64,000 bases of DNA from IMG/VR virus record IMGVR_UViG_3300045741_000352, positions 6,490-70,489 of that record; one strand, given 5' to 3'. The stretch is from a virus. Positions 54,190 to 55,434 of this stretch are shown in pieces (the stretch's first letter is position 1; each line of letters begins with the position of its first letter). Both the position numbers and the translations under genes were made by a program. The notes under the pieces are model-generated. The model did no database searches, was not told where the DNA came from, and saw nothing but the letters and a program-made list of their open reading frames with translations.

Positions 54190-54495
54190 TTAACCGGAGC
54201 CGTCGCCGTCGCCGTCGCCGGAGCCGTAGCCGTAGCCGTAGCCGTAGCCGTCGCCGTCGCCGTCGCCGTCGCCGGAGCCGTAGCCGTAGCCGGAGCCGTA
54301 GCCGTAGCCGTAGCCGGAGCCGTAGCCGGAGCCGTCGCCGGAGCCGTAGCCGTCGCCGGAGCCGTAGCCGTCACCGTAGCCGTTACCGTAGCCGTTACCG
54401 TTACCGGAGCCGTAGCCGTCTCCGGAACCGTAGCCGTAGCCGTAGCCGTAGCCGTCACCGTAGCCGAAGCCGGAGCCGTCGTCTATTCTTTCCAT
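54190..54495 (-). CDS. Gly-X dipeptide-repeat protein, array copy A (101 aa)
   Basis: ATG at 54495 and TAA at 54190-54192. Product is MERIDDGSGFGYGDGYGYGYGYGSGDGYGSGNGNGYG...GDGDGDGSG. Start and stop context is shared with copies B-D. Confidence 0.55.
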   Translation of the reverse strand: MERIDDGSGFGYGDGYGYGYGYGSGDGYGSGNGNGYGNGYGDGYGSGDGYGSGDGSGYGSGYGYGYGSGYGYGSGDGDGDGDGYGYGYGYGSGDGDGDGSG

Positions 54496-54514
54496 GTGTA
54501 TATTTTCACTTATT

Positions 54515-54796
54515 TTAGCCGTAGCCGTAGCCGTCACCGTTACCGTTACCGTTACCGTAGCCGTAGCCGTAGCCGGAGCCGTCACCGTTACCGTAGCCGT
54601 CGCCGTCGCCGGAGCCGTAGCCGTAGCCGTCGCCGGAGCCGTAGCCGTAGCCGTAGCCGTAGCCGTAGCCGTAGCCGGAGCCGGAGCCGGAGCCGGAGCC
54701 GTCGCCGTCGCCGTCGCCGTAGCCGTCGCCGGAGTCGTCGCCGTAGCCGTAGCCGTCGCCGGAGCCGTAGCCGTAGCCGTCGCCTATTCTTTCCAT
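54515..54796 (-). CDS. Gly-X dipeptide-repeat protein, array copy B (93 aa)
   Basis: ATG at 54796 and TAA at 54515-54517. Product is MERIGDGYGYGSGDGYGYGDDSGDGYGDGDGDGSGSGSGSGYGYG...NGNGNGDGYGYG. Confidence 0.55.
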   Translation of the reverse strand: MERIGDGYGYGSGDGYGYGDDSGDGYGDGDGDGSGSGSGSGYGYGYGYGYGYGSGDGYGYGSGDGDGYGNGDGSGYGYGYGNGNGNGDGYGYG

Positions 54797-54815
54797 GTGT
54801 ATATCTTCGCTTATT

Positions 54816-55061
54816 TTAGCCGGAGCCGTAGCCGTAGCCGTAGCCGTCGCCGTCGCCGTCGCCGTCGCCGTAGCCAGAGCCGTAGCCGTCGCCGGAGCCG
54901 TAGCCGTCACCGGAGCCGTAGCCGTCACCGGAGCCGTAGCCGTCGCCGTCGCCGGAGCCGTAGCCGGAGCCGTAGCCGGAGCCGTCGCCGTCACCGTAGC
55001 CGTAGCCGGAGCCGGAGCCGGAGCCGTCACCGTAGCCGGAGCCGTTGTCTATTCTTTCCAT
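54816..55061 (-). CDS. Gly-X dipeptide-repeat protein, array copy C (81 aa)
   Basis: ATG at 55061. Product is MERIDNGSGYGDGSGSGSGYGYGDGDGSGYGSGYGSGDGDGYGSG...GYGYGYGSG. Confidence 0.55.
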   Translation of the reverse strand: MERIDNGSGYGDGSGSGSGYGYGDGDGSGYGSGYGSGDGDGYGSGDGYGSGDGYGSGDGYGSGYGDGDGDGDGYGYGYGSG

Positions 55062-55080
55062 GTGAATATCTTTACTTATG

Positions 55081-55434
55081 TTAGCCGTCACCGGAGCCAG
55101 AGTCGTAGCCGTAGCCGTAGCCGTAGCCGTAGCCGTCGCCGTAGCCGGAGCCGTAGCCGTAGCCAGAGCCAGAGCCAGAGCCAGAGCCAGAGCCAGAGCC
55201 AGAGCCGGAGTCGTAGCCGTCGCCGGAGCCAGAGCCAGAGCCAGAGCCGGAGTCGTAGCCGTCGCCGTCGCCGTCGCCGGAGCCGTAGCCGTCGCCGTAG
55301 TCGGAGCCGGAGCCGTAGCCGTAGCCGGAGCCGGAGCCGGAGCCATAGCCGTAGCCGTAGCCGGAGCCAGAGCCGTAGCCGGAGCCGGAGCCGGAGCCAG
55401 AGCCGGAGCCGTAGCCGTTGTCTATTCTTTCCAT
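55081..55434 (-). CDS. Gly-X dipeptide-repeat protein, array copy D (117 aa)
   Basis: Track ORF. Product is MERIDNGYGSGSGSGSGSGYGSGSGYGYGYG...YDSGSGDG. The ATG lies inside the last codons of the upstream gene (gtATGGAAAGAATAG). Confidence 0.55.
   Translation of the reverse strand: MERIDNGYGSGSGSGSGSGYGSGSGYGYGYGSGSGSGYGYGSGSDYGDGYGSGDGDGDGYDSGSGSGSGSGDGYDSGSGSGSGSGSGSGSGYGYGSGYGDGYGYGYGYGYDSGSGDG

Follow-up and report, generated by a model that had tools for sequence, protein, structure and literature searches.

Four tandem Gly-X dipeptide-repeat genes downstream of a DUF6948 gene in a lytic, podovirus-like phage

Can a stretch of DNA that repeats itself every six nucleotides (nt) over 1.25 kb be a set of genes and, if so, what may its products do? 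This question is raised by an array on the minus strand (54190-55434) of a stretch of 64,000 nt of virus DNA (positions 6,490 to 70,489 of the IMG/VR record IMGVR_UViG_3300045741_000352), which is referred to as the window and to which all position numbers apply. The window represents a lytic, podovirus-like phage of approximately 70 kb. As retrieved from the listing of open reading frames (ORFs) and by reading of the strand, the array is divided into four ORFs of 117, 81, 93, and 101 amino acids (aa), in which Gly alternates with a second residue (Gly-X). Judged by comparison with related loci, these four ORFs are copies, amplified four-fold in tandem, of the second member of a conserved gene pair, the first gene of which encodes a protein of the DUF6948 family.

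The Gly-X array and its reading frame

Each of the four Gly-X ORFs starts with ATGGAAAGAATAG(A/G)C, encoding MERI(D/G), and ends with TAA. Gly-X gene 1 (55081-55434, minus strand; 117 aa; net charge of about -12.5), with its ATG at 55434-55432, is separated from the next unit by a first spacer of 19 nt (55062-55080, minus strand; cataagtaaagatattcac), which runs from the TAA of gene 1 to the ATG of gene 2. Gly-X gene 2 (54816-55061, minus strand; 81 aa; net charge of about -13.5) opens with a duplicated ATGGAAAGAATAG 13-mer and is followed by a second spacer of 19 nt (54797-54815, minus strand). Similarly, Gly-X gene 3 (54515-54796, minus strand; 93 aa; net charge of about -13.5), which begins with MERIG, is followed by a third spacer of 19 nt (54496-54514, minus strand), and Gly-X gene 4 (54190-54495, minus strand; 101 aa; net charge of about -14.5) holds the single Phe of the array. 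The three spacers are near-identical to one another. Tandem Repeats Finder returned one period-6 array (54194-55418; 205.7 copies), and the GC content amounted to 0.638 in the region 54001-55000 versus approximately 0.47 in the flanks. A strict hexamer array of 1.25 kb with three near-identical junctions is far beyond chance. At the protein level, Gly was in register at 181 of the 186 alternate positions of the window units, the five exceptions all being Asp, and the X residues were restricted to Tyr, Ser, Asp, and Asn, besides the one Phe. The four proteins have a calculated isoelectric point (pI) near 4 and contain one Arg each and no Lys. An earlier note on this DNA, made from its letters, had described four minus-strand Gly-X ORFs with shared starts, TAA stops, and short spacers, a strict 6-nt periodicity in a GC-rich array, Gly at every second residue with Tyr, Ser, Asp, Asn, or a single Phe in between, and acidic, aromatic, low-complexity products, a description that was borne out by these data.

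According to the ORF listing, a GGCNNC repeat leaves five of its six frames open, so that openness alone is uninformative on which frame is coding. Loci carrying a DUF6948 gene were taken from three collections, namely 44 IMG/VR contigs, four isolate phages, and 73 contigs from genomes or metagenome-assembled genomes (MAGs), the last ones being counted only if at least 150 nt were present downstream of DUF6948. A Gly-X ORF on the same strand was found downstream of DUF6948 in 43 of the 44 IMG/VR loci, two of which (L001 and L002) contained only a short degenerate run that started 330-410 nt downstream. Such an ORF was also present in all four isolate phages (Ralstonia phage NK-7, Pectobacterium phage Pappous, Iodobacter phage phiPLPE, and Chlorobiaceae phage CV-1-33) and in 72 of the 73 genome/MAG loci, which span many phyla. 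Overall, 115-118 of the 121 loci with sufficient downstream sequence had a Gly-X ORF adjoining DUF6948. The dominant Gly codon varied by locus, being GGC in 82, GGT in 15, GGG in six, and GGA in three of 106 loci. Across the same loci, Tyr was encoded by TAC or TAT and Asp by GAC or GAT, and Ser was encoded mostly by TCY and exclusively by AGY in three loci. The G-[S/Y/D] pattern remained constant over the 106 loci while the codons varied, and the remaining five frames yielded a different peptide per lineage (e.g., AT, AM, VT, VL, or GP). Furthermore, one large sub-family has proteins in which the repeat joins, without a change of frame, a conserved helix at the N-terminus to a conserved domain of about 160 aa at the C-terminus. 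In a set of 94 of these proteins, the flanks of which were at least 80% identical, the repeat measured 8 to 88 aa, was of even length in 92 cases, and occurred in 90 distinct sequences. According to this comparison, the length of the repeat changes by 6-nt slippage, almost always in steps of 6 nt, and the frame is kept. The search among relatives for frame-breaking indels or stops, on which the earlier note had made its coding interpretation depend, thus uncovered the opposite. Also, the variation of codons under a constant amino acid pattern supports its choice of the minus-strand Gly-X frame as the real product. Taken together, the four ORFs are very probably genuine coding genes in a conserved module.

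The codon usage of the array deserves attention, as it could be read in another way. The codons of the window array (GGC, TAC, TCC, and GAC) are the opposite of the usual ones of this phage (GGT, AGT, and GAT), and each related locus is likewise dominated by one Gly codon of its own, which is exclusive in most of them. Such a single dominant Gly codon per locus points to concerted evolution via slippage within each array, as far as can be judged from the sequences compared. The extreme uniformity of codon choice per array, atypical for the phage in the case of the window, together with the openness of several other frames, could also mean that the hexamer array works as DNA or RNA, for instance as a signal for replication or packaging or as an RNA bound by the partner protein, for which an Sm-like fold is predicted (see below), the ORFs or their frame being incidental. 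However, lineages vary at synonymous third positions and even between TCY and AGY for Ser, the five other frames are not conserved, and both the start codon and a Shine-Dalgarno-like sequence are under selection (see below). In addition, globular domains flank the repeat on either side in the same frame, its length changes in 6-nt steps, and, apart from a tRNA, Rfam retrieved nothing in the region. A function of the array as mere nucleic acid is hence extremely improbable, and coding genes remain the preferred reading.

The DUF6948 partner and the overlapping start

The gene upstream of the array (55422-55823, minus strand; 133 aa), the stop codon of which (TAG, 55424-55422) is located inside the first Gly-X ORF, encodes a protein that matches the Pfam family DUF6948 (PF22253) over residues 42-125, with 105.3 bits versus a cutoff of 27 (E = 1.8e-30). 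All homologues listed carry the same family in their precomputed Pfam annotation. The family encompasses at least 7,953 clusters at 90% identity (E < 1e-5), a profile search returning approximately 2,485 clusters at 50% identity. It is found in phages and prophages binned with Cyanobacteria, Acidobacteria, Firmicutes, Bacteroidota, Proteobacteria, Planctomycetes, bacteria of the candidate phyla radiation (CPR), and others. The usual DUF6948 protein counts 96 aa, to which the window copy adds an N-terminal extension of 37 aa with two helices, and the domain ends exactly at the C-terminus of the protein in almost all members. An AlphaFold2 model of the window protein, built from 38 sequences, reached a mean predicted local distance difference test (pLDDT) score of 90.1 and consisted of a strongly bent, five-stranded small beta-barrel with Sm topology, in which an extra helix (residues 83-89) is placed between strands 3 and 4. 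When this model was compared with the PDB by Foldseek, the top 50 matches were all Sm/LSm proteins, the best ones being archaeal SmAP proteins with a template modelling (TM) score of 0.69-0.74 (normalized by target length) and a root-mean-square deviation of 2.0 Å over about 81 columns. An Sm/LSm-like fold can thus be predicted for DUF6948 with high confidence, based on this model. A PDB match at the sequence level was not found for DUF6948. The invariant residues of the family include R47, R72, R73, W75, W77, K98, and F99, Y76 being nearly invariant.

The first Gly-X gene starts within this DUF6948 gene. Indeed, its ATG lies within the end of the upstream coding sequence (...GTA TGG AAA GAA TAG), resulting in an overlap of 13 nt, as the earlier note had observed when it placed the first ATG in the stop region of the upstream gene. 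In the window, the ATG of the Gly-X gene begins 12 nt before the stop codon of DUF6948 ends, and the same arrangement was retrieved for 94 junctions in 86 loci. DUF6948 proteins terminate as ...(V/I/E/A)-W-x-x-stop, and the ATG is composed of the third base of the codon preceding Trp and the TG of TGG. The base before TGG was A in 94 of 99 W-x-x-stop junctions, whatever the amino acid encoded (GTA 32, ATA 20, GAA 17, and GCA 13). Also, a Shine-Dalgarno-like 4-mer was present at positions -16 to -5 in 65 of the 94 junctions. Other geometries encountered were an ATGA overlap, an overlap of -16 or -18, and a gap of 5 nt after GGAG (Ralstonia phage NK-7). Because of the overlap, the codon for residue 2 in the repeat protein is bound to be Gnn (E, G, A, D, or V) and that for residue 4 nTA or nTG (I, L, V, or M). 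As a consequence, MERI is not a leader motif, because the overlap with the upstream W-K-E-stop dictates those residues. The conserved MERI(D/G) start highlighted in the earlier note is indeed common to the four units, but it is imposed by the overlap and copied in units 2-4 rather than being a functional leader. Since units 2-4 each carry the duplicated 13-mer, the array arose by tandem duplication including the 3' end of the DUF6948 gene. Tandem copies of the Gly-X gene occur elsewhere too, with three copies in L012, at least three in L023, two in both L058 and L116, and several in L109, the four copies of the window being the highest number among the loci examined.

The position of the start codon bears on how the repeat protein is translated. 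In most loci, the Gly-X frame is in the same shifted frame with respect to DUF6948 and overlaps its last four codons, so that programmed ribosomal frameshifting in these codons could in principle yield a single tailed Sm-Gly-X protein, the more so as natural in-frame fusions indicate that a tailed form is viable. In one such fusion (P0491), read on the DNA as ...ACA CCA ATA TGG AAG AAA TAT GGA TCT GGA..., with GGA as the Gly codon, the repeat follows DUF6948 directly, and four further DUF6948 proteins (P0436, P0366, P0405, and P0428) carry Gly/Asp/Ser-rich tails. However, a conserved slippery sequence or heptamer was absent among the DUF6948/Gly-X junctions compared, the overlap varies freely except for the ATG, and selection acts on the A that creates this ATG and on the upstream Shine-Dalgarno-like sequence. 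Moreover, the ATGA overlap and the +5 gap of NK-7 cannot work by a shift, and units 2-4 of the window are preceded by stops in all relevant frames. Frameshifting is therefore very unlikely, and the varied overlap geometries, combined with the absence of a slippery sequence, fit better with independent initiation. The Gly-X protein is probably initiated by termination-reinitiation coupling, as suggested by the junction sequences. The coupling of the first gene to the upstream gene, which the earlier note had proposed, is supported by the conservation of the overlapping ATG across loci. Ribosomes finishing DUF6948 would re-initiate on the first Gly-X gene, and units 2-4 of the window would be reached by re-initiation from each preceding unit across the 19-nt spacers. 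Terminator-like sites on the minus strand were absent inside the window array.

Genomic context and possible role of the pair

The window contains genes for a large terminase subunit, a portal protein, an internal virion protein, and a lytic tail protein, as well as for ribonucleotide reductase, a helicase, ParB, ThyX, and PolA with uracil-DNA glycosylase and exonuclease domains. The DUF6948/Gly-X pair is located in a minus-strand replication operon, downstream of polA and a gene for tRNA-Gln (anticodon UUG; 56121-56196, minus strand), the latter being situated between polA and the DUF6948 gene and just downstream of a sigma-70-like site (56238-56209). Besides polA, the genes for ThyX and ribonucleotide reductase are among the neighbours of the pair in the window. 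Phage tRNAs for Gly, Tyr, Ser, or Asp are absent from the window, despite the heavy demand of the array. Elsewhere, the pair adjoins genes for Erf, SSB, RecE/Bet, YqaJ, or Sipho_Gp157, always in early or replication-recombination operons. The closest genomic homologue of the window DUF6948 (69% identity), in a Microcoleus MAG (L053), has no flanking genes in common with the window, so that the pair moves as a module between unrelated genomes; as the flanks of L053 differ, no syntenic relative is available for a check of the copy number. From this gene context, the pair appears as an early, intracellular module.

The composition of the repeat protein is as conserved as its position. Over 100 loci, the Gly-X repeat regions had medians of 12% acidic, 0% basic, and 16.5% aromatic residues and 15% Ser, besides approximately 50% Gly, and all 100 regions examined were net negative. 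Pro, Thr, and Ala were rare at X (0, 11, and 11 of 1,690 positions, respectively), although they are one mutation away from Ser TCC, which suggests that the composition of the repeat is under selection. Most Gly-X partners consist of a leader of 4-10 residues followed by the repeat, with a total of 22-195 aa. The repeat of one homologue (P0242) scored a pLDDT of about 25 in AlphaFold2 and is thus predicted to be disordered. Family searches with the four window Gly-X proteins returned only sub-threshold compositional matches in Pfam (TrAA12 linker), nothing in PHROGs, and one sub-threshold serine-rich match in NCBIfam. A tblastn search with one Gly-X protein against phages gave no match, because the low-complexity filter was active. 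Against GenBank phages, megablast with a 10-kb segment around the array did not retrieve a match either, and a search at the DNA level for a homologue in an E. coli prophage returned none. An exact search for the 21-mer of the junction in IMG/VR was likewise without a match, this phage thus being absent from the collection as searched. Of the profile searches and comparison of related genomes proposed in the earlier note, the former gave no usable family match to the repeats, and the latter revealed that the Gly-X frame is kept in the relatives.

A strict alternation of Gly with another residue recalls the beta-sheet pattern of silk, and the homologue of NK-7 is labelled 'fibroin heavy chain-like' in GenBank. 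The products could accordingly be seen as a structural or extracellular material, such as a silk-like or amyloid beta-sheet fibril, a part of the virion, or a scaffold on which Tyr and Ser are cross-linked or glycosylated. Weak compositional Pfam matches to a keratin head and a sulphur-globule protein go in the same direction, as do the environmental glycofibrils that have been reported to contain a dipeptide-repeat core of unknown origin (bioRxiv 10.1101/2025.09.30.679562). However, the genes belong to replication or early modules and not to structural ones, a signal peptide is absent, and no conserved modifying enzyme is encoded beside the pair. Moreover, silk-type sheet packing would be hindered by Asp and the bulky Tyr, which together fill more than half of the X positions, and AlphaFold2 found no ordered repeat structure (P0242). 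A structural role is therefore of very low probability and, judging by the context, a task inside the cell that is linked to the Sm-like partner is more likely than one in the virion or in a matrix.

The Gly-X repeat also occurs in other protein architectures. The sub-family with a C-terminal domain mentioned above (L026-L044, L106, and P0241-P0360) combines an N-terminal helix (METLExRIKAFLS), a hypervariable Gly-X spacer, and the conserved domain of about 160 aa with the motif YHHVLTGSCRMGRESF, and this architecture forms a family of 1,863 clusters. The C-terminal domain had no sequence match in Pfam, PHROGs, or the PDB; its AlphaFold2 model had a mean pLDDT of 54, only the beta-rich first half being confident, and Foldseek returned nothing meaningful for it. 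Three other Gly-X proteins (P0124, P0130, and P0131) possess an N-terminal domain of about 65 aa with a shared GAC(P/S)(E/D) motif; P0131 (L051, 4001-4384) and P0130 (L052, 4001-4420) are encoded directly downstream of DUF6948 with overlaps of 4-10 nt. Finally, proteins of the family DUF7666 (PF24703; P0123, P0143, and P0164) display a C-terminal Gly-Tyr/Asn/Asp repeat. One DUF7666 fusion (L050, 4001-4510) is situated in the early region of a temperate phage or prophage, beside Sipho_Gp157 and ERCC4 and without an adjacent DUF6948 gene, indicating that the repeat module is used more widely than the pair. A separate presence of these accessory domains (the one of about 160 aa, DUF7666, and the GAC-motif domain) in the window was ruled out by tblastn.

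The attachment of the repeat to unrelated domains, sometimes away from DUF6948, raises the possibility that the Gly-X protein acts on the host, as a disordered, polyanionic, aromatic mimic or decoy that titrates nucleic-acid-binding proteins or defence sensors, DUF6948 being a mere neighbour or chaperone. Every repeat region is net acidic and devoid of Lys and Arg, the genes reside in early operons, where anti-host genes usually lie, and a four-fold amplification would suit a bulk titrant. Against such a role stand the near-obligate adjacency to DUF6948, the overlapping start, and the natural DUF6948 fusions. Furthermore, the mimics Ocr and ArdA are rigid and folded and the Gly-X repeat is predicted to be disordered, and neither PHROGs nor NCBIfam gave a match, PADLOC not having been searched. 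On balance, a host decoy is the main rival reading, but rather unlikely.

That the two genes are almost always adjacent, with the second starting inside the first, and are occasionally fused makes a classical argument for a direct functional partnership of their proteins, and the chance that the repeat protein physically partners DUF6948 seems, from these sequence patterns, slightly better than even. The Gly-X protein would then be a detachable low-complexity tail or partner of an Sm-like oligomer. Its Tyr and Asp side chains, projecting at every second residue of an extended chain, would make many weak multivalent contacts, for which R47, R72, R73, W75, Y76, W77, K98, and F99 may form the contact surface on DUF6948. 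One option is that the repeat serves as an acidic pseudo-substrate that competes with nucleic acid for DUF6948, as the acidic tip of Hfq does. Alternatively, it may tie rings together into a larger assembly during the early phase of infection, that of DNA metabolism, like the low-complexity tails of LSm proteins. With four separately initiated copies, more repeat protein would be made per Sm-like protein, without a single array being lengthened or destabilised. A specific regulator or condensate mechanism of this kind, drawn by analogy, is put forward tentatively and is more doubtful than the partnership itself. The explanation as a whole, its observed and inferred parts taken jointly, has an even chance of being correct.

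Several points weigh against this explanation. With respect to the fold, the Foldseek E-values of the Sm/LSm matches were only about 2e-3, Pfam retrieved no LSM or Hfq match for DUF6948 at E <= 0.01, and hhalign against A. fulgidus Sm1 gave a probability of 1%, with 20 columns aligned in the beta1-beta2 region only; as neither the profile searches nor the profile-sequence comparison were significant, the similarity to Sm proteins is one of fold only. With respect to translation, units 1-4 of the window are preceded by a weak Shine-Dalgarno sequence, whereas many other genes of the phage have AGGAG. Also, the rare fusions could in principle be sequencing frameshifts, and the repeat may have a DUF6948-independent activity, given its occurrence away from DUF6948. 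Finally, the copy number of four is known from one metagenome contig alone, and the Logan contig L049, from a short-read assembly, carries an identical DUF6948 gene and breaks 42 nt into the array. As many related contigs, L049 included, end in or after the repeat, the real copy number or unit lengths could differ and the four-gene layout could partly be an assembly artefact. Yet, the four units are unlike in length and dipeptide order, and multi-copy arrays were found independently at other loci. In addition, the longest exact repeat inside the array is 47 nt and no 55-mer occurs twice, so that an assembler with a k-mer length of at least 55 can cross the array unambiguously. An artefactual layout is thus quite improbable, and a genuine four-fold amplification remains the preferred reading.

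Elsewhere in the window, a strongly basic ORF of 58 aa just downstream of the array (53979-54155, minus strand), preceded by a strong Shine-Dalgarno sequence GAGGTG, was considered as a conserved coacervation partner and rejected, as the next ORFs of 66 loci had a median pI of 6.3 and no consistent character. PolA (56245-58944, minus strand; 899 aa), a family A DNA polymerase, combines an N-terminal domain of the uracil-DNA-glycosylase superfamily and a 3'-5' exonuclease domain in one protein. An ORF of 216 aa (63258-63908, minus strand) encodes about 20 heptads GDCSxLx with a period of 21 nt (repeats at 63341-63755), which are unrelated to Gly-X; it adjoins a ParB-like gene (62451-63248). Four tandem-repeat families occur within about 1.1 kb (6848-7982) upstream of and into the called start of the large terminase gene (11 nt, 6.9 copies; 96 nt, 1.9 copies; 25 nt, 2.4 copies; and 30 nt, 2.8 copies; three of them perfect and one with 84% matches), and this region may serve as an origin or a packaging site or mark an end of the genome. 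Lastly, a 15-nt tandem repeat of 8.3 copies (39264-39397) is located within the gene for the lytic tail protein of 936 aa (38331-41141).

Relation to known systems and significance

Among the eukaryotic Sm/LSm proteins, SmD1, SmD3, and SmB carry RG repeats, and LSm4 has an RGG or Q/N tail. An Sm-fold core with a Gly-dipeptide or low-complexity tail for further contacts or granule assembly resembles what is predicted for the phage pair and, in particular, its rare fusions. In contrast, the phage tail is normally a separate, coupled polypeptide and is acidic-aromatic (G-S/Y/D) instead of basic (G-R). Moreover, DUF6948 is without detectable sequence similarity to these proteins, has a helix inserted between strands 3 and 4, and is known here from its predicted fold. 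Similarly, the bacterial Hfq possesses a disordered C-terminal domain with an acidic tip that autoregulates RNA binding, so that both systems associate an Sm-like barrel with a disordered acidic segment as a potential competitor at basic patches, DUF6948 having invariant Arg, Lys, and aromatic residues. There is, however, no sequence relationship with Hfq, and the phage has one or more separate genes for its acidic element, which consists of a long and strict dipeptide repeat. The [G/S]Y[G/S] domains of FUS share with Gly-X a dominance of Gly, Ser, and Tyr, regularly spaced Tyr residues, predicted disorder, and a hypervariable sequence of conserved composition. They differ in that Gly-X has a strict two-residue period, about 12% Asp/Glu, a net charge of about -13 per 100 aa, and a far shorter length of 22-195 aa; indeed, Gln occupied two of 1,690 X positions, which departs from the Gln/Asn-rich, near-neutral composition of FUS-like domains.

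Small early phage proteins with an Sm-like fold have been put forward before. According to the part of the source consulted, GoF, MotB.1, and Frd.2 of phage T4 have predicted LSm-like folds and a proposed role in RNA stability or expression (PMC12152347). They resemble DUF6948 in being small phage early proteins that are Sm-like by structure prediction only, but they are unrelated in sequence, and a repeat-protein partner is not mentioned in that part of the text (PMC12152347). Alternating or frequent Gly with Ser and Tyr is also a feature of silk fibroin (GAGAGS)n, keratin-associated proteins, and SgpA/B. The Pfam matches to such proteins are, however, compositional and sub-threshold, and the proteins of the phage differ from them by their small size, strong acidity, and X residues that are bulky or charged, their gene context pointing to the cytoplasm. 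Unlike a silk-type protein, the repeat has Tyr or Asp at more than half of the X positions and Ala at only 11 of 1,690, and the window proteins measure 81-117 aa and lack a signal peptide. A collagen-like or polyglycine-II structure does not agree with the period of strictly two residues (6 nt). With regard to DNA mimics of the Ocr and ArdA type, in which acidic residues are displayed in a DNA-like pattern on a folded scaffold, the window proteins have a strongly negative net charge, but the repeat is predicted to be disordered and did not match PHROGs or NCBIfam. Hence, the Gly-X/DUF6948 pair fails at least one defining feature of each of the tailed Sm/LSm, Hfq, FUS-type, and LSm-like T4 systems.

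Literature searches in the library covered did not retrieve any relevant paper on DUF6948, DUF7666, fibroin-like or Gly-Tyr repeat phage proteins, or low-complexity or condensate phage proteins. The statement of the earlier note that no family of this kind could be recognised therefore holds in so far as neither a paper nor a family model was found for the repeat protein; the array is not an orphan, however, but part of a widespread gene pair with DUF6948. The DUF6948 + Gly-X module is hence regarded as undescribed, and the copy in the window belongs to it as an ordinary member except for the four-fold amplification.

The repeat affects the way these genes enter the databases, as it breaks short-read assemblies and causes mis-annotated or missed genes. 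It constitutes a systematic breakpoint in short-read assembly, with contigs stopping tens to hundreds of nt past the DUF6948 stop codon; contigs ending in or just past the repeat include L006, L016, L018, L029, L049, L057, L083, L084, L101, and others. GenBank labels Gly-X homologues as 'hypothetical' or 'fibroin heavy chain-like'. Gene 25 of phage CV-1-33 (MT192033; L048, 3279-3536) is annotated in a Met-Ala frame (MAMAMALAMA...) and not in the Gly-X frame, which begins 12 nt ahead of the DUF6948 stop, and a 78-aa Gly-X ORF of phage phiPLPE (EU876853; L047, 1173-1409) was left unannotated. At the protein level, standard tryptic proteomics would be blind to the window proteins, because these contain no Lys and a single Arg at residue 3.

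Almost every DUF6948 copy is followed by a Gly-X gene, and neither gene has a described function. A wider and more speculative idea, to which a low probability is attached, is that DUF6948 and Gly-X together form a phage Sm-ring ribonucleoprotein assembly, in which the acidic, Tyr-rich repeat, as a portable tail recognised by the ring, regulates nucleic-acid binding and drives multivalent, condensate-like clustering inside the infected bacterium, the other Gly-X fusions being recruited clients. If an Sm-like protein with a detachable tail is indeed at work, phages of Pectobacterium (Pappous, Ymer, and Abuela), Ralstonia (NK-7), and Iodobacter (phiPLPE) would offer a simple, culturable system to study low-complexity sequences that accompany RNA-chaperone folds in bacteria. 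If the idea of an Sm-ring assembly with Gly-X is true as well, it would represent a viral, prokaryotic counterpart of the low-complexity tails of LSm proteins in eukaryotic RNA granules.

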